Made by a program: the position numbers and the translations under genes | Part shown: one piece after another, positions 4,605-14,459 of the stretch | How positions within the stretch are numbered: the first letter of the stretch is position 1 | Layout: every line of letters starts with the position of its first letter | Notes under the pieces: generated by a model | What the model saw: only the letters and a program-made list of their open reading frames with translations | The model's database searches: none | Told to the model about the DNA's origin: nothing | Source: Minisyncoccota bacterium | Lineage (GTDB): Bacteria > Patescibacteriota > Minisyncoccia > Phycocordibacterales > UBA5272 | Length of the DNA: 38,578 nt | Assembly: GCA_022843645.1 (NCBI GenBank) | Contig: JALHNF010000001.1 | Span: forward strand, 1 to 38,578 | Reading direction: 5' to 3'

Positions 4605-5120
4605 ATGACTATATCAAATCAAACAAAACAACAAGAACAGTTTTTAACTAAGGCGCACCATGACTATGAGAAGGGTATGAATACCTACACCTTTTTCAAG
4701 GTTCACAATCATGCAATGAGTCGTGATTTGGTTCAGGATACTTTTATAAAAACATGGGCATATATTACGAAAGGTGGAAATATAGAGACAGTGAAGCCAT
4801 TTTTGTATCACATCCTGAATCATCTTATTATTGATGAGTATCGAAAAAAGAAAGTAGTATCTCTTGATGTGCTTATTGAAAATGGTTTTCAAAAGAGCTC
4901 AGACCAACACAAAAGAGTTGTTGACATACTTGACGGTAGGATAGCGATTTTACTCATTGGCGATCTCTCAAAAAAATATGCAAAAGTTATGCATATGCGG
5001 TATGCCCAAGATCTTTCTGTGCAAGAAATATCTCACATTACTCGACAGTCAAAAAATGCTGTTACTGTGCGGCTGTCTCGTGGCCTTGTGCAACTGAGGG
5101 CTTTATATAATCACAAGTAA
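4605..5120 (+). CDS. ECF-type RNA polymerase sigma factor (sigma-70 regions 2 and 4)
   Basis: Region 2-like SRDLVQDTFIKTWAY...PFLYHILNHLIIDEYRKKK. Region 4 HTH-like YAQDLSVQEISHITRQSKNAVTVRLSRGLVQLR. The track ORF opens at GTG 4470, but that extension is Cys/Tyr-rich junk, so ATG 4605 (MTISNQ) is preferred. Confidence 0.8.
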   Translation: MTISNQTKQQEQFLTKAHHDYEKGMNTYTFFKVHNHAMSRDLVQDTFIKTWAYITKGGNIETVKPFLYHILNHLIIDEYRKKKVVSLDVLIENGFQKSSDQHKRVVDILDGRIAILLIGDLSKKYAKVMHMRYAQDLSVQEISHITRQSKNAVTVRLSRGLVQLRALYNHK

Positions 5121-5123
5121 AAG

Positions 5124-5147
5124 AAGAGGCGGAAAGACCTCTTTTTT
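5124..5147 (+). terminator. intrinsic terminator after the sigma factor gene
   Basis: AAGAGG / CCTCTT stem, 8-nt loop, followed by a T-run. Confidence 0.6.
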
Positions 5148-5162
5148 GTTTACGTTTTTGGG

Positions 5163-5235
5163 TGGACCCTAGGAGATTCGAACTCCTCACCTCTGGAGTG
5201 CAAAACCAGTGCTCTACCAAATGAGCTAAGGGCCC
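5163..5235 (-). tRNA. tRNA-Ala (anticodon UGC)
   Basis: The reverse complement folds as a 73-nt cloverleaf. Acceptor GGGCCCT/AGGGTCC carries the Ala identity pair G3:U70. D arm GCTC-ATTTGGTA-GAGC. Anticodon arm CTGGT-TTTGCAC-TCCAG (U31-U39 mismatch). T arm AGGAG-TTCGAAT-CTCCT. Discriminator A. The downstream bases are CCC, so CCA is not fully encoded. Confidence 0.9.
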
Positions 5236-5281
5236 AGTATGTGGTTGTTTAATTTACTACTTCTATTGCGTCATGTGGTTT

Positions 5282-5339
5282 TGCAAAACCAGTGACTTTT
5301 AAAATCTTGGTACCCTCGTGCCAAATGAGCTAAGGGTCC
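5282..5339 (-). pseudogene. tRNA-Ala 5'-half-derived fragment (no T arm, no 3' acceptor strand)
   Basis: 5321-5339 (ccaaatgagctaagggtcc) matches 5217-5235 of the intact tRNA at 18/19 positions. 5282-5294 (tgcaaaaccagtg) matches 5199-5211 at 13/13. The two blocks are separated by 26 nt here versus 5 nt in the real gene. Confidence 0.6.
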
Positions 5340-5448
5340 GTTTATTTTTTACTGGAGCCTCGCGGTACGCAAGACCCAATGGAAAATAGTATACACGAAG
5401 ATATCTTTTTTGGAAGAGGGCAGAAAGTACGTTATAGTATGGGCATAT

Positions 5449-6777
5449 ATGCGTGTCTTTCTCCTTGTATTTGCTGGGGTAATTCTCGGTGCTGTGGGGC
5501 TCTATTTTGTGGAGCGCTACTTTACGTTTCGTACTATTGCTCAAAACATAGAAGAGTATGTCCCAAGTCCCCTTGGTAAACAAGTAGCACACAACGAGTA
5601 TTCAGAAGACTTTTTATTACAAAAAATTGAAGAATTCAAGCGTTCCGGAGAAAAATTTGTATTAGCGGATCTCTCAGAGATGCGCCTGGACGTCTACGAA
5701 GGGGGACTTGCGACACTCTCGTTTCCTATCCAGGCAAAGGGAAGAGAGGGTTCCTGGTGGGAAACTCCAGCCGGCCTCTATAGTGTCAAGTCAAAAGCCG
5801 AAAACCATCTTTCGTCAATTGGAAACGTGTACATGCCGTGGAGCATGCAGTTTCAAGGCAACTTTTTTATTCACGGACTACCGTATTACCCCGATGGCAC
5901 CCCAGTAAGCACAAGCTATTCTGGTGGGTGCATTCGCCTTGCCACAGAAGATGCCGAGAAAGTATTTCGATATGTTAAAAATGGTACACCGCTTATTGTG
6001 TTTGAGAATACAAAAAGTGAATCGCCTGTACGTAACTACACTTTTGGGCCAAGTATACTGAGCGCAGGAACATTTCTTGTGGCAGATTTAAAAACAGGTT
6101 TTACATTTGGCTCACAAAAAACAAAAGAGCCCATCTCACCTTCTTTTGCGGCACAGCTTCTGCTTGCAGTTATTTCTGCTGAATACATGGACATTGAGAG
6201 AAACATCATGGTCGACCCAAGTGACTTGGTAGAGACACGCATTCCAAGGCTAAAGCCTGCCACAAAACACATGGTATACGACTACCTGTATCTGGTGTTG
6301 CAAGAAGGCTCATACGAGGCAAGTAACGTTTTGGCTCGGGCTCTTGGCACCATGCGCACAATCGACCTACTCGGCCAAAAAGCAAAAGCCATCGGCATGA
6401 AGGATACAACATTCAATATGTCAGAGACAAAAACTCTCTCTCTTGTTACAAACGCCGAAGACATTTACCAACTCCTTCGGTATATGTATTTCAATAGAAA
6501 GTTTTTGCTCACTATCAGCGCAAACACTGCCGAGACGCACATCTACGGCACGCCTTCTTTCAAGAATTTAGAAAACAATAATTTGTTTGTTGGGGACCCT
6601 TCTTTTGTGGGAGGGAGCGTGACAAAAAATGGCACTAAGGCAAGCGGGGCATTTATTTTTGAGATTCCTTTTGGCGATACAAAAGAGCCGATTGCCATTA
6701 TTGTTACTGACTCAGAAAATATTGTAAATGATGTCACGGCTATCCGTGCCTTTGTGCAGACGAGTTTTAAAAAATAA
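5449..6777 (+). CDS. membrane-anchored L,D-transpeptidase (YkuD domain) fused to a degenerate S11/PBP5-like domain
   Basis: TM anchor MRVFLLVFAGVILGAVGLYFV. YkuD signature FFIHGLPYYPDGTPVSTSYSGGCIRL (Cys codon 5929-5931). The C-terminal half aligns by eye to the neighbouring S11 carboxypeptidase but reads SFAA for SxxK, SYE for SxN and KNG for KTG. The track start is TTG 5410; ATG 5449 is preferred. Confidence 0.75.
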   Translation: MRVFLLVFAGVILGAVGLYFVERYFTFRTIAQNIEEYVPSPLGKQVAHNEYSEDFLLQKIEEFKRSGEKFVLADLSEMRLDVYEGGLATLSFPIQAKGREGSWWETPAGLYSVKSKAENHLSSIGNVYMPWSMQFQGNFFIHGLPYYPDGTPVSTSYSGGCIRLATEDAEKVFRYVKNGTPLIVFENTKSESPVRNYTFGPSILSAGTFLVADLKTGFTFGSQKTKEPISPSFAAQLLLAVISAEYMDIERNIMVDPSDLVETRIPRLKPATKHMVYDYLYLVLQEGSYEASNVLARALGTMRTIDLLGQKAKAIGMKDTTFNMSETKTLSLVTNAEDIYQLLRYMYFNRKFLLTISANTAETHIYGTPSFKNLENNNLFVGDPSFVGGSVTKNGTKASGAFIFEIPFGDTKEPIAIIVTDSENIVNDVTAIRAFVQTSFKK

Positions 6778-6782
6778 AAAAC

Positions 6783-7589
6783 ATGGCGCACATACTATCT
6801 GGTAGAGAAATAGCAGACGCGTATGAAGTATCTCAGAAAGAAAAAGTTGCTTCTCTGGTTCGAAGAGGAGTCATACCAACGCTTGCGATTATAAAAGCAA
6901 GTAGTTCTCTCGTGATCGATACGTATATTGCAGTAAAGAAAACCTACGCAGAGAAGATAGGGTGTAGGGCGCTTGAGTATGTTGCATACGAAGAGGGTGA
7001 ATTATTGGCATGTATTTCTAAGCTTAATCAAGATGATGCAGTGCACGGTATTATCGTACAACTTCCTCTGATAGAAGGTATTGATGTCGAAAGAGTTCTG
7101 TCTTCTATCTCGATACAAAAAGACGTCGACGGATTGCACCAAATGACTTCCTTTGTGCCGCCAACAGTACAGGCGATTTTAAAGTTAATGGATGTGTATG
7201 TTCCAAAGTTGAAAGAACAAAAAGTTGCAATTGTGGGAAGTGGTAAGTTGGTTGGAAAACCACTTAGGCTTGCCTTAGAAAAAAGGGGTGTAGATTCATG
7301 GGTATTCAAAAAAGGGGATTCACTTGAGTCTCTCAAAGAATACCGTGTGATTGTATCGGCAACAGGTGTACCAAGCCTTCTTACAAAAGAGCATTTTGGA
7401 GATGGCGCATATATTTTTGACGCAGGTACCGCAGAACAAGAAGGTTCTGTGAAAGGAGATGTTAAGGAAACCGTATACGAAGATGAAAATGTACATATAA
7501 CCCCTAAAAAAGGTGGTATCGGAATGCTCACTGTTCGATTTCTATTTGAAAACATGATACATGCCTGCCAAAAACATTTTGAATCTTAG
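6783..7589 (+). CDS. folD: bifunctional methylenetetrahydrofolate dehydrogenase/cyclohydrolase
   Basis: ILSGREIA..., PTLAIIKAS, YIAVKKTYAEKIG, GIIVQLPL, DVDGL, VGSGKLVGKPL, TPKKGGIGMLTV. The order and spacing are typical of FolD. Confidence 0.85.
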   Translation: MAHILSGREIADAYEVSQKEKVASLVRRGVIPTLAIIKASSSLVIDTYIAVKKTYAEKIGCRALEYVAYEEGELLACISKLNQDDAVHGIIVQLPLIEGIDVERVLSSISIQKDVDGLHQMTSFVPPTVQAILKLMDVYVPKLKEQKVAIVGSGKLVGKPLRLALEKRGVDSWVFKKGDSLESLKEYRVIVSATGVPSLLTKEHFGDGAYIFDAGTAEQEGSVKGDVKETVYEDENVHITPKKGGIGMLTVRFLFENMIHACQKHFES

Positions 7590-7615
7590 TGTATTTTTCG
7601 TATACTAAAAGCATC

Positions 7616-8590
7616 ATGTTCCAAAGGTTTCTTTTGGCTACACTCATCATCTCAATGACAAGTATTGGGATTGTGGGCGCTGCAACATACTACGGGAAAA
7701 AAACCGTGTCAGTATCTTCTTATGGTAATGAAGAAAACCACGCTATCTCTTTTTCGGAGGGGGCACAAGAATACATACCTACCTTTTTCGTATCTTTTCC
7801 TGAGACGGTAATAGATGCAGATGGCGCATACATAGGAAAAGTTGATCTTTCCTCTGGTACCATCACCCCTTTGTATACAAAAAATGAAAAGCAGAAGCTT
7901 CCGATCGCGAGTATCTCAAAGCTTATGACGGCGTATGTAGCTCTTCAAGGGAGAAGTTTGAATAGTACGTTTATCATCACTGACTGGGCAATATCGGGAC
8001 CATGGCCATCTCATAAATTCACTGCCGGAGATGTGTACTCTTTGCGGGAACTTCTAGAAGCGACGCTCGTAGAATCAAACAACGATGCTGCGCGTGTGCT
8101 CGCTGCAAGTATAGGTGAAAAAAACTTTGTACAAAAAATGAATCTTGCTGCAGCTGCTTTTGCTTTGCCTGACACGAAGCTCTATTCATCTGATGGTACT
8201 GAAAGAAAAATCGCTGACACATGGGTTGAAAATACGTCTACACCAGAAGATATCGCACACCTTATTGTGAGCCTACACTCTGTTGCTCCAGAGCTTCTTC
8301 AGGTGACTACAAAGCCCGCCGTGCTTATTTCTGACGTCACGGGAACAAAAACATTTACTGCATACTCCACAAATAGACTGATGGAATATTTTGGAAATGA
8401 ATTTACCCTCCTTGGCGGGAAGACGGGCACATCTGATTCAGAACGCAGACATCTCGTTATCCTTTTTGAAGATGCGCAAGGTGATGCATACGTAGCTGTT
8501 GTTCTTCAGTCTAAAGACAGTTTCAAAGACATGGCGACACTTCTTTCATCTGTCCGAGAGTATACACAAAGCTTGTATGCTAAAAATTAA
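7616..8590 (+). CDS. D-alanyl-D-alanine carboxypeptidase (peptidase S11, PBP5/6-like)
   Basis: All three motifs are present: SxxK (PIASISKLMTA), SxN (ESNNDAA) and KTG (GGKTGTS). N-terminal TM/signal FLLATLIISMTSIGIVGA. The track start is GTG 7589; ATG 7616 is preceded by TATACT (7601-7606). Confidence 0.8.
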   Translation: MFQRFLLATLIISMTSIGIVGAATYYGKKTVSVSSYGNEENHAISFSEGAQEYIPTFFVSFPETVIDADGAYIGKVDLSSGTITPLYTKNEKQKLPIASISKLMTAYVALQGRSLNSTFIITDWAISGPWPSHKFTAGDVYSLRELLEATLVESNNDAARVLAASIGEKNFVQKMNLAAAAFALPDTKLYSSDGTERKIADTWVENTSTPEDIAHLIVSLHSVAPELLQVTTKPAVLISDVTGTKTFTAYSTNRLMEYFGNEFTLLGGKTGTSDSERRHLVILFEDAQGDAYVAVVLQSKDSFKDMATLLSSVREYTQSLYAKN

Positions 8591-9092
8591 TCTGTTCCTT
8601 AAGGAGTTTCTCAAAAGACAATCTTGGGTAACTATTGGAATAACACTTCTTGTTTTTTATGCGATCGGGATTATTGCGCTTCGTTTTGCAACCATCGTGA
8701 GTCTCCTAGAGCAATTTCCATTATCGGAATCCGCCAAACTTGTAGCACTTGTCTTTGTGCGCCCACTTGATGCATTTACACTTGGAAACTTTGTTCTTTT
8801 TCTTGTGTCTGGGTTTTTATTCGGCTCTCAGATAGTTGCTTTACGGCTATACGTCAAGAAGCGCTTTTTCAACTCACATCACAGTCTCGGTTTTGTTGGT
8901 ATGCTAGGCACACTGTTTGGTTGTTTAGCGTGTTGCGGGTCAATTATTGTTGTCACATTCATTGGGGCACTCGGTGTTTCTTTGGGGACACTGCCATTTA
9001 ATGGCCAAGAAATAGCTTTTGTTGGCATTGCCGTCTCTTTACTTGCACTTCTTTATACCGTCAAAAAGATAGACGACCCACTTGTGTGTTAG
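8577..9092 (+). CDS. hypothetical polytopic membrane protein with CxxCC motif
   Basis: Four to five hydrophobic segments and GCLACCGS inside a TM segment. ATG 8577 overlaps the upstream stop by 14 nt. The track start 8499 would overlap the carboxypeptidase by 92 nt. Confidence 0.55.
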   Translation: MLKINLFLKEFLKRQSWVTIGITLLVFYAIGIIALRFATIVSLLEQFPLSESAKLVALVFVRPLDAFTLGNFVLFLVSGFLFGSQIVALRLYVKKRFFNSHHSLGFVGMLGTLFGCLACCGSIIVVTFIGALGVSLGTLPFNGQEIAFVGIAVSLLALLYTVKKIDDPLVC

Positions 9093-9818: not shown

Positions 9819-9850
9819 GCATTTTCATTTAACAAAATGAGGAAATATTG

Positions 9851-9856
9851 TATTAT
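9851..9856 (+). promoter_or_regulatory. -10 box TATTAT 6 nt upstream of ATG 9863 (leaderless-type)
   Basis: TATTAT at 9851-9856, a 6-nt gap, then ATG. No SD. Confidence 0.4.
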
Positions 9857-9862
9857 TTAAGC

Positions 9863-10663
9863 ATGCTTAATTTTCTTAAAACTCTTGGACTCTTAGCAAT
9901 TGGACTTCTTGTCATTGCAATCATTGCATGGTTTGTCTTTCCTGCTTCTCAAAAAGCAGTTGATAGCATTGCAAACACAGATGTGGCGCCGAAGCGTACG
10001 CTCGGAGAAATATTTGTGCGGGATTTTTTAGGAATTCCAAAATGTGGCATTCTTGGCGGCGGGTGTGACGCTCGAAATACAGATCCTTCTTCTGAGACGC
10101 AAATATTTTCTAATCCAGATATAAAAACCGTTGAGCCATATTCAGGGAGTACAGTAAAAAATCAGATGCTCATAGAGGGTGTGGCGCGAGCATCTTGGTT
10201 TAGCCAAGGTGTTGCGCCTGGAGAAGTTCGCAATGAACGAGGGGAAAAAGTTGGTGCGTTCATAATCAAGAAGGCTACTTCCACTATTCCTACACCTTCA
10301 AACTCATTTGTGTCATACACCGGCACTTTGCAATATGGAGATCCTGACACAAAAACAGGATATATTATTTTTAAACGTGGAACTGGAACTACAACCAACG
10401 CTACTTTGTCAGTACCGGTGCGATTTTATGAAACAAACACAAATTCGCAATCGTTTCTTACACCACCCCCTGTTGCATCAGAATGTCGAAAAACCGGATG
10501 TAGTGGGCAGATTTGTGCAGACCAGGAAATCATGACGACATGTGAGTTTCGCACGGAATACGCATGTTACCAAAACGCAAAATGTGAACGTCAGCCAAAT
10601 GGCACATGTGGATTCACTCCGACAAGTGAGCTCACAGGCTGTCTTGCAGGTACATCTAATTAA
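9863..10663 (+). CDS. secreted/anchored protein with Gmad2-like Ig domain and C-terminal eight-cysteine cluster
   Basis: N-terminal anchor LKTLGLLAIGLLVIAIIAWFV. IEGVARASWFSQGVAPGEVRNERGEKVG resembles the Gmad2 pattern. The C-terminal 60 aa contain exactly 8 Cys (CRKTGCSGQIC...TTCEF...ACYQNAKCERQPNGTCGF...GCL). Confidence 0.65.
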   Translation: MLNFLKTLGLLAIGLLVIAIIAWFVFPASQKAVDSIANTDVAPKRTLGEIFVRDFLGIPKCGILGGGCDARNTDPSSETQIFSNPDIKTVEPYSGSTVKNQMLIEGVARASWFSQGVAPGEVRNERGEKVGAFIIKKATSTIPTPSNSFVSYTGTLQYGDPDTKTGYIIFKRGTGTTTNATLSVPVRFYETNTNSQSFLTPPPVASECRKTGCSGQICADQEIMTTCEFRTEYACYQNAKCERQPNGTCGFTPTSELTGCLAGTSN

Positions 10664-10668
10664 GCGCG

Positions 10669-11706
10669 ATGTCTATGTATAAAGTCGCAGGTCTTATCCT
10701 TGCCTTTTTACTATTATGTATTTTCTTTCTATATCAAGAGTATCAACCCAAAACAGTTTTTCCTAATCAAGAATTCCAAGAAAGGATCGCAATCCCAGAG
10801 AAGAAAGACGTTATGGATATTCTCATATTTGGCGACGTCATGCTAGATAGGGCGGTGCGTGAATATATACATCAAAATACAACGCAATCTTTATTTAAAA
10901 ATGTCTCCTCAGAAATAGACAAAGCAGATATCACGCTTATTAATTTAGAGGGCCCAATCACAAAGAATCATTCTGTTGTTACAAAAACAAACTTTCAGTT
11001 TACGTTTGCTACTCATACGGCACAGGATCTTTCAGACATCGGTATAGATGTGGTGAGTCTCTCCAACAACCATGCGCATAATTTCGGTAGACAAGGACTT
11101 CTTGAGACAAAAGAATACCTCACTAATGCCGGTGTAGCTTTTTTTGGCGATCCATATAATAAAGCTGGTACAACATATACGCACACAAAAGGTAAAACAA
11201 ATGTTTCGTTTATTGGTTTCCACCAATTCGAGGCGTACGATATCAGTGTTTTGCTAGAAGAAATACGAGAACTCAAAAAACAAAATCATTTTATTGTTTT
11301 TTATCCACATTGGGGGGAGGAATACAAACTGAAAGCAAATGCCACACAAGAAGGCATTGCTAAGGAAGTACTCGCGGCAGGTGTGGATATTGTGATAGGT
11401 GCCCATCCGCACGTCATACAAAATGTTTCGTTATTACAAAACAAATTAGCATTTTACTCGCTTGGCAATTTCATTTTTGATCAGTGGTTCTCGAAAGATG
11501 TTCAGTACGGACTCGCCCTTAAACTGTCGCTTGAAAATAATGTTCTAAACAAAGTTGAGCTTAAGCCGTTTTTCAGAGAAAGGTTTGAGCCTGTATTTTT
11601 GAGCGGTGAAGAAAAAGATACATGGTGTGAAGCATACCTAAAAGTATCTCTCATGGCGCCAAATACCCAGTCTCCTTGTATAATTGAAATGAATCGAAAT
11701 GAATAA
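10669..11706 (+). CDS. CapA/PGA_cap family metallophosphatase-like protein
   Basis: ILIFGDVMLDR, LINLEGPIT, VVSLSNNHAHNFG, HWGEEY, GVDIVIGAHPHVIQ and YSLGNFIFDQ, in the family-typical order. N-terminal TM segment. Confidence 0.8.
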   Translation: MSMYKVAGLILAFLLLCIFFLYQEYQPKTVFPNQEFQERIAIPEKKDVMDILIFGDVMLDRAVREYIHQNTTQSLFKNVSSEIDKADITLINLEGPITKNHSVVTKTNFQFTFATHTAQDLSDIGIDVVSLSNNHAHNFGRQGLLETKEYLTNAGVAFFGDPYNKAGTTYTHTKGKTNVSFIGFHQFEAYDISVLLEEIRELKKQNHFIVFYPHWGEEYKLKANATQEGIAKEVLAAGVDIVIGAHPHVIQNVSLLQNKLAFYSLGNFIFDQWFSKDVQYGLALKLSLENNVLNKVELKPFFRERFEPVFLSGEEKDTWCEAYLKVSLMAPNTQSPCIIEMNRNE

Positions 11707-13850: not shown

Positions 13851-14459
13851 ATGAAAACAATGCTTATTGGAATTGTTGTGATCGCAGCGGGCTTTTTTGG
13901 GCTTGTGTGGTTTGGTGGCACTAAACCATCTGAAAATAATGGGGAAATTGGCACATATGTGTCATACACAAAAGGACCACAAACGGCGAAGGTTAAAATC
14001 ACTGAATACGCAGACCTAGAGTGCCCTGCGTGCGCCGCTATGCACCCAATTATCGATGACTTGCTTGCGAAGTATCCAAATGATATCGAGCTTACCTTCA
14101 AACATTTTCCACTTGCAACTATTCACCCCAATGCACTTCCTGCGGCAAAAGCTGCAGAGGCAGCGGGTATTCAAGGTAAATTTTTTGAAATGCTTGATCT
14201 CATGTTCACAAACCAAGGAGAGTGGTCAAAAAACTCAAATGAAGATGAGGTATTCACTCGATATGCCACAGAGCTTGGGCTTGATGTAGAAAAATTTAAA
14301 GCCGACATCAAAGATGCAACAATTGCAGCAAAAATAAAATCAAACTACGCCGAAGGCGTATCTCTTTCAGTGCGTGGTACTCCAACGTTCTTCATAAACG
14401 GCACAAAACTTGAGAACAATGCTCTCCTCATCTCTTCTGTTGAGGCCTTACTTAAGTAA
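13851..14459 (+). CDS. DsbA-family thiol:disulfide oxidoreductase, membrane-anchored
   Basis: N-terminal TM segment, thioredoxin-fold active site ECPACAAMHP (CPAC), and a C-terminal RGTPTFFING cis-Pro-loop region. Confidence 0.8.
   Translation: MKTMLIGIVVIAAGFFGLVWFGGTKPSENNGEIGTYVSYTKGPQTAKVKITEYADLECPACAAMHPIIDDLLAKYPNDIELTFKHFPLATIHPNALPAAKAAEAAGIQGKFFEMLDLMFTNQGEWSKNSNEDEVFTRYATELGLDVEKFKADIKDATIAAKIKSNYAEGVSLSVRGTPTFFINGTKLENNALLISSVEALLK

Follow-up and report, generated by a model that had tools for sequence, protein, structure and literature searches.

An L,D-transpeptidase fused to an S11 peptidase-fold domain without catalytic motifs in a Patescibacterial gene string

Why should a cell wall cross-linking enzyme carry, within the same polypeptide, a peptidase domain from which every catalytic motif has gone? 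The question is raised by a gene at 5449-6777 of the window, a term used here for the whole 38,578-nucleotide stretch of DNA that was analysed (contig JALHNF010000001.1 of the Minisyncoccota bacterium assembly GCA_022843645.1, positions 1 to 38,578 of the forward strand). Its product joins an L,D-transpeptidase (LDT) of the YkuD type to a domain with the fold of the S11 peptidases, and a stand-alone S11 peptidase is encoded two genes downstream. An earlier note, made from the letters alone, had described this protein as an LDT fused to a catalytically dead PBP5-like domain, where PBP stands for penicillin-binding protein. The dead domain is found here to derive from an intact fused ancestor and to be maintained by selection, and we favor the view that it persists as a structural partner of the transpeptidase. 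The gene and the parts of its product are as follows.

5449 to 6777, forward strand: the LDT/dead-S11 fusion gene, encoding a membrane-anchored protein of 442 amino acids whose homologs share an MR.. start
5449 to 5520, forward strand: N-terminal transmembrane helix, residues 1-24, from the AlphaFold 2 (AF2) secondary structure, pLDDT and the hydrophobic sequence MRVFLLVFAGVILGAVGLYFV
5653 to 6000, forward strand: YkuD L,D-transpeptidase domain, residues 69-184, from Pfam PF03734 and a genome search
6046 to 6768, forward strand: S11/PBP-fold pseudoenzyme domain, residues about 200-440, with the SxxK, SxN and KxG motifs all lost

The transpeptidase half has kept its active site, as the earlier note had claimed. 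The YkuD match scores 59.1 bits against a cut-off of 23.4 (E 9.9e-16), and both His142 (in IHGLP) and Cys161 (in SGGCIRL) are present and invariant across 120 homologs. In phmmer and Foldseek searches of the PDB, this half matches LdtMt5 of Mycobacterium tuberculosis by sequence (6d5a, 4z7a) and 5bmq and 4xxt by fold. The window genome, which measures 568 kb and is about 90% complete, contains one YkuD gene, one true S11 gene and three transpeptidase PBPs with the PF00905 domain. The fusion protein is the only L,D-transpeptidase of this genome, and it is predicted to be active from its intact His/Cys site.

The C-terminal half is less easily recognized. Pfam Peptidase_S11 (PF00768) covers residues 204-346 at 13.5 bits, below the cut-off of 27.6. 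In a phmmer search of the PDB, residues 201-391 match DacB1 of M. tuberculosis (4ppr, E 1.8e-6), followed by Rv2911 and by endopeptidases of the PBP7 type. In an AF2 model built on a 97-sequence alignment (pLDDT 87.4, pTM 0.80), a transmembrane helix (2-24) is joined by a low-confidence, disordered linker (28-49) to the beta-domain of YkuD (70-185), which is followed by an alpha/beta domain (206-438). In a Foldseek search of the PDB with this model the top 40 or so matches are S11 enzymes (E 3e-11 to 1e-8), with target-normalized TM scores of 0.73-0.76 to single-domain S11 proteins (6muq, 4p0m, 5tr7 and 5zq entries), and BLASTP aligns the fused domain with the neighboring S11 at 21% identity over 179 amino acids (E 2e-5). 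Sequence and model together place the C-terminal half among the S11 homologs, as a genuine though degenerate one, and the relation that had been proposed by eye holds. The C-terminal beta-sandwich and amphipathic anchor of PBP5 are absent from the fused domain and from the neighboring S11, so that the description "PBP5-like" is valid only for the S11 catalytic fold. Pfam finds no further domain in the two proteins, each of which has an N-terminal helix as its anchor.

The motif columns were read against 96 intact fused relatives, and the reading was repeated on an alignment anchored to a hidden Markov model (HMM). The three motifs compare as follows.

SxxK: IAS(I/V/L)TK in the intact relatives, PSFAAQ in the window protein (Ser233 to Phe, Lys236 to Gln)
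SxN: ESSNEA in the intact relatives, EGSYEA in the window protein (Ser287 to Gly, Asn289 to Tyr)
KxG: GGK(V/I/T)G in the intact relatives, GGSVT in the window protein (Lys390 to Ser, Gly392 to Thr)

The earlier note was therefore correct that all three motifs are lost, although for SxxK and KTG its by-eye register had slipped by a residue or two. Since the serine needed for acylation, the two lysines and the asparagine of SxN are gone, the domain is expected to have neither a DD-peptidase role nor canonical acylation by beta-lactams. It might be supposed that catalysis continues through non-canonical or shifted residues, and the window protein does contain stray SVTK (390), SETK (325) and KTG (215) strings. 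These strings lie at non-equivalent positions and are not conserved among the close relatives that share the motif loss, in which the nucleophile column reads F/V/I/S/E/A. A check of the clade alignment for catalytic Ser/Lys at shifted positions found no conserved SxxK or KTG in the fused domain; the loss of the motifs stands, and residual catalysis of this kind is barely credible.

The survey of the candidate phyla radiation (CPR) that the earlier note proposed uncovers a large Patescibacterial family in which either active site has been lost repeatedly. A word-indexed search returns 913 homologs, and those with a named source come from Patescibacteria, Paceibacteria, the Parcubacteria group or related candidate phyla. 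An exhaustive HMMER search of 1.84 billion cluster representatives gives 280 clusters (50% identity) at E <= 1e-30, and both domains are covered in most of the 150 clusters listed among these 280. All three S11 motifs are kept by 96 of the 120 closest proteins; they are lost in the window protein, in 21 close relatives (52-62% identity) and in the homolog P0030, while P0023 has lost only the lysine of the third motif. A broader set of 134 complete and diverse representatives divides into 69 intact forms, 40 in which none of the three S11 motifs is left but the LDT site is intact, 19 partial forms and 6 that show the reciprocal state; loss of both sites is seen in none of the 134. A MAFFT alignment and the HMM-anchored alignment gave essentially the same numbers, which rules out misalignment by MAFFT as a source of inflated counts of dead forms.

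On the tree of these representatives the all-dead state requires 16 changes, at least 7 of which are forced by well-supported branches, although the counts are approximate because the tree was made with FastTree and rooted at its midpoint. The reciprocal forms (P0164, P0213, P0219, P0227, P0253 and P0262) have an intact S11 site and a YkuD cysteine replaced by glycine (SGGCIRL to xGGGIRL); their YkuD domain is still recognized by Pfam, and all but one of them group together on the tree. Most of the intact fused S11 domains have K-V-G, K-I-G or K-N-G as their third motif in place of the canonical K-T/S-G, whereas KTG is found in all six of the stand-alone S11 neighbors examined, and the intact fused domains may have an altered substrate recognition.

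The two-domain gene was looked for in even samples of genomes that are at least 80% complete. It occurs in 4 of the 301 genomes sampled from the whole phylum and in 23 of 201 (about 11%) in the class of the window, where it is spread over 20 of 157 genera and is always single copy. Members of the family are named in databases as "L,D-transpeptidase family protein" or "D-alanyl-D-alanine carboxypeptidase", and full-text literature searching found no description of the YkuD-S11 fusion or of its disarmed forms. The case in the window is one of a pseudoenzyme domain within known enzyme families, and not a new kind of system; what is documented here of the S11-dead state is its origin, its pattern of selection and its relation to the stand-alone S11.

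Where did the dead domain come from? The earlier note had raised the possibility that it arose by duplication of the neighboring gene, which the phylogeny contradicts. In a tree of the S11 domains, the six stand-alone S11s of these neighborhoods are separated from all fused S11 domains by a 100/99 split, so that the two represent separate old paralog clades; together with an identity of only 19-21% to the neighbor, this rules out a recent duplication. In a full-length maximum-likelihood tree, the 22 motif-less close relatives form one clade, with a support of 99 in the Shimodaira-Hasegawa approximate likelihood ratio test (SH-aLRT). The smallest well-supported set that holds this dead clade (97) adds only P0023-P0026, all intact bar P0023. 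One loss is enough to explain the dead clade. On these trees the ancestor of the dead domain is an intact fused domain and not the neighboring gene.

The next question is whether the domain has been maintained since that loss. The ratio of identity in the C-terminal half to that in the N-terminal half is 0.85 within the dead clade, 0.79 among intact forms and 0.63 between the two groups, a pattern that fits a burst of change at the time of loss followed by renewed constraint. For the least saturated pair of genes, those at loci L010 and L011, the dead domain has a ratio of nonsynonymous to synonymous substitution rates (dN/dS) of 0.13, against 0.06 in the YkuD domain; with a dS of about 1.2 these values are rough, and dS is saturated for most other pairs, including the uninformative comparisons of the window with its relatives. 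Within the dead clade the positions that once held the motif residues Ser, Lys, Asn, Lys and Gly fall between the 5th and 29th percentiles of conservation, and Ala232, Thr239, Ser264, Thr399, Arg413 and Leu420, which show little or no variation among intact forms, have also been relaxed. The core has been kept (Asp213, Arg267, Glu286, Ser288, Gly300, Gly316, Asp338, Phe352 and Gly388-389), and Gly200, Pro201, Asp256, Arg297, Gln341, Thr363 and Phe408 have become newly invariant. The same combination of relaxed pocket and conserved core recurs among the 40 dead representatives, which come from independent lineages. By these measures the dead domain is under purifying selection while its old pocket is relaxed.

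Such a pattern bears directly on two other explanations. A functionless remnant on its way to deletion would agree with the disappearance of all three motifs, and with the window protein being the most degenerate of its clade, since it alone reads GSY where the others keep the SxN serine (S-S-Q/E/N/H). However, the domain is retained at full length throughout the clade at 52-62% identity and in at least 7 dead lineages, its dN/dS is about 0.13, its ratio of C- to N-terminal identity is no lower than that of intact forms, and its AF2 fold is confident. Decay is thus largely refuted, with very little probability left to it.

The domain could alternatively have become a non-catalytic module for binding or targeting, whose old groove would present penta- or tetrapeptide stems to the LDT, much as the earlier note had suggested for the dead module. 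The fold and the secondary structure that forms the groove are retained, Glu286, Ser288, Arg267 and Gly388-Gly389 are invariant in dead and intact forms alike, and the domain is under purifying selection. A conserved pocket, however, should keep such residues or switch them consistently rather than randomize them, and the catalytic positions together with Ala232, Thr239, Ser264, Thr399 and Arg413 are among the least constrained, independent dead lineages included. Variability at the former catalytic and pocket-associated positions, set against a preserved fold core, disfavors the idea of stem-peptide binding, which we consider unlikely; purifying selection combined with a variable pocket favors a structural or scaffolding role over canonical binding of this type.

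The residue beside the catalytic histidine of the transpeptidase is another point of difference between lineages. Residue 144 (about 5878-5880) is Trp (IHGWP) in nearly all family members and Leu or Ile throughout the dead clade of the window (IHGLP, with VHGIP in P0018), and it stays Trp in most other dead lineages. It may be that the LDT site, or else the interface between the domains, has undergone a co-change specific to this clade.

If the fused S11 site has been given up, is its chemistry available elsewhere? The genes downstream of the fusion on the same strand include the following.

6783 to 7589, forward strand: folD (methylenetetrahydrofolate dehydrogenase/cyclohydrolase; Pfam PF00763, PF02882), kept between the two cell wall genes in the clade
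7616 to 8590, forward strand: stand-alone S11 DD-peptidase, anchored at its N-terminus (Pfam 90 bits, E 2.2e-25; SISK, SNN, GGKTG)
8577 to 9092, forward strand: polytopic membrane protein of 171 amino acids, carrying a CLACC motif as well as a C-terminal Cys, whose gene overlaps the S11 stop by 14 nucleotides
10669 to 11706, forward strand: PGA_cap (CapA-like) gene in the same string (Pfam E 6.3e-54)

The S11 gene at 7616-8590 has all its motifs and is the only bona fide S11 found by a search of the window genome, and the coordinates bear out the positions that the earlier note had given to folD and to the CxxCC membrane gene. The order fusion-folD-S11-small membrane protein is a compact, operon-like layout that is kept in every locus of the dead clade that was examined (two genomes of the same genus, L004, L005, L008 and L009-L011). 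The pairing with an S11 gene also occurs beside intact fusions, as fusion-folD-S11 for P0024 and as fusion-scpA-scpB-S11-mraY...ftsW for P0107, and must therefore be older than the loss of the motifs. Among GTDB species-representative genomes with enough downstream sequence, an S11 gene lies within a few kb downstream of 14 of 49 intact fusions and 3 of 5 dead ones, all three from the clade of the window; neither of the two dead fusions that belong to other lineages is followed by an S11 within about 4.5 kb. Whole-genome searches find a strong stand-alone S11 in five of five genomes with a dead fusion and in five of five with an intact fusion. Its presence in all 10 genomes that were checked makes the fused S11 site a redundant and dispensable second copy. 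An acquisition of the stand-alone S11 as compensation for the loss is ruled out, given that all 10 have it regardless of the state of the fusion and that intact fusions are syntenic too.

PGA_cap is tied to the same proteins by gene fusion. About a third of the class-level matches to the family lie in frames of about 720-800 amino acids, and a Pfam scan identifies P0188 and P0226 as triple fusions of YkuD, S11 and PGA_cap, in forms of about 770-800 amino acids. As PGA_cap is fused C-terminally to LDT-S11 in other lineages and encoded nearby in the window, it provides a Rosetta stone link between this "capsule" domain and the processing of peptidoglycan stems. The downstream position of PGA_cap is kept in L004 and L005, and the only solved relative of the PGA_cap protein of the window found by sequence is PDB 8gq9 (E 2.5e-6).

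These neighborhoods suggest another role for the dead domain, as a docking or regulatory partner of the stand-alone S11, and perhaps of PGA_cap, which would channel tetrapeptides to the LDT by analogy with EnvC and NlpD; the scaffold for the active carboxypeptidase that the earlier note had named is likewise possible. In support, synteny is strict across the dead-clade loci examined, the newly invariant residues listed above are specific to the clade, and PGA_cap is both fused to LDT-S11 elsewhere and a near neighbor here. Yet the synteny predates the loss, as P0024 and P0107 demonstrate, and the two dead fusions of other lineages lack an S11 close downstream. We consider such a partnership unlikely, though a live alternative.

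The explanation that we prefer, at a rough probability of 0.55, is that the fused S11 site was lost as redundant and that the domain is kept as a structural partner of YkuD, with tetrapeptides supplied in trans. LDTs need tetrapeptide donors that are made by DD-carboxypeptidases (PMC5089857; PMC13753750): YcbB of Escherichia coli requires PBP5 (PMC5089857), and DacA and DacC feed the LDTs of Clostridioides difficile (PMC13753750). The ancestral fusion would have coupled the production of tetrapeptides, through a DD-carboxypeptidase or a DD-endopeptidase step, to 3-3 cross-linking; DD-endopeptidase activity, which is represented among the closest folds, would equally give tetrapeptide stems. 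Beside a stand-alone S11 the fused chemistry would have been redundant, and its motifs were lost repeatedly. The domain itself would be retained as a partner of YkuD, whether for folding, for rigid positioning above the membrane or as a docking surface, and the intact S11, which is encoded two genes further on and probably on the same transcript, would provide the donors. Purifying selection on the domain, the drift of its pocket and the existence of reciprocal, LDT-dead forms that keep both halves all argue for such a structural interdependence.

Several points weigh against this preferred explanation. The packing of the two domains against each other is read only from the pTM of 0.80, dS is near saturation and the dN/dS values are approximate, and co-transcription is deduced only from spacing. 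The pocket-adjacent Glu286, Ser288 and Arg267 stay invariant, so that a residual ligand sub-site is possible. The term "intact" refers to motifs only and does not imply activity, and many intact fused domains carry K-V/I/N-G. All functions within the family are predicted from sequence or model.

The spacing of the genes nevertheless fits a single transcription unit, and no convincing terminator is found on the forward strand between 5449 and about 10687. The fusion is taken to start at ATG 5449, for an equivalent MR.. opens all close homologs in the alignment; an alternative TTG start at 5410 coincides with the -35 hexamer of a promoter-like site.

5410 to 5438, forward strand: promoter-like TTGGAA-17-TATAGT, ending 10 nucleotides before the ATG, by consensus match only

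If used, this site implies that the leader would be very short or absent, though the count of promoter-like sites in the region is not above that expected from shuffled sequence. The sole tRNA detected by ARAGORN within 5000-5600 is a tRNA-Ala(TGC) on the reverse strand at 5159-5236.

The remaining genes of the string are less directly connected with the fusion. The membrane protein encoded at 8577-9092 matches none of the families in Pfam or NCBIfam; it shares 38% identity with its ortholog in L005 (E 2e-42) and has equivalents in L004, L005 and L008. Further along the forward strand, 9848-10663 encodes a secreted protein with an eight-cysteine-cluster domain at its end (TIGR04289, E 3.4e-7), and 13851-14459, in the same string, encodes a DsbA-like protein of the thioredoxin fold (PF13462, E 5.5e-27). 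Both of these genes are kept downstream of the S11 gene in related loci.

A more far-reaching proposal, which we regard as speculative and on balance improbable, is that YkuD and S11 form an obligate unit in which either site, though apparently not both, can be lost, and in which the disarmed pseudo-PBP would serve as a docking or allosteric platform that ties the LDT to the stand-alone DD-peptidase and PGA_cap in a CPR-specific stem-editing complex. If true, this would define a previously unrecognized peptidoglycan stem-editing complex of these ultra-small bacteria. The dependence of LDTs on DD-carboxypeptidases, known genetically from E. coli and C. difficile, also gains a natural Rosetta stone in the fusion, and the link now appears in CPR bacteria, a group in which work on the cell wall has been scarce. 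The recurrent loss of the site, with retention of the domain, amounts to a natural experiment on which parts of the penicillin-binding fold are needed beyond catalysis. For annotation, naming by domain match alone as "D-alanyl-D-alanine carboxypeptidase" will mislabel about a third of the diverse members of the family.

How does this arrangement compare with known systems? The closest counterparts are the intact members of the family itself: P0024 and P0107 share the order of transmembrane helix, YkuD and S11 at 38-47% full-length identity, with the same neighborhood in the case of P0024, the nearest intact relative examined, but they keep S-x-x-K, S-S-N and K-x-G where the clade of the window has lost all three. 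In fold, the C-terminal domain resembles the class C low-molecular-mass PBPs, which likewise have no beta-sandwich and which include PBP7/PbpG (6muq, 6azi), DacB1 Rv3330 (4ppr), Rv2911 (4rye/4p0m) and Listeria PBPD2 (5zq entries), with Foldseek E values of about 1e-10; unlike the fused domain, which lacks all three motifs and falls below the Pfam S11 gathering cut-off, these enzymes have them. Among pseudoenzymes, the dead LytM factors EnvC and NlpD activate amidases. They too retain a hydrolase fold under selection after the loss of catalysis, but their fold is that of LytM, they are stand-alone proteins and their partners have been shown.

The catalytic domain and its His/Cys motif are shared with the YkuD LDTs, such as Ldtfm of Enterococcus faecium, the Ldt enzymes of M. 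tuberculosis and YcbB/LdtD of E. coli, and the use of tetrapeptide donors is expected for the LDT of the window as it is for those enzymes (PMC5089857). Known YkuD LDTs differ in having peptidoglycan-binding, Ig-like or scaffold accessory domains rather than an S11 fold, and in relying on separate DD-carboxypeptidases. The supply of the LDT donor by a DD-carboxypeptidase is common to E. coli YcbB with PBP5 (PMC5089857), the C. difficile LDTs with DacA and DacC (PMC13753750) and the E. faecium Ldtfm pathway (PMC4161250). In those systems the two activities reside in separate proteins and there is no pseudo-PBP, whereas in the window they are encoded within one gene string and would ancestrally have been combined in one polypeptide.

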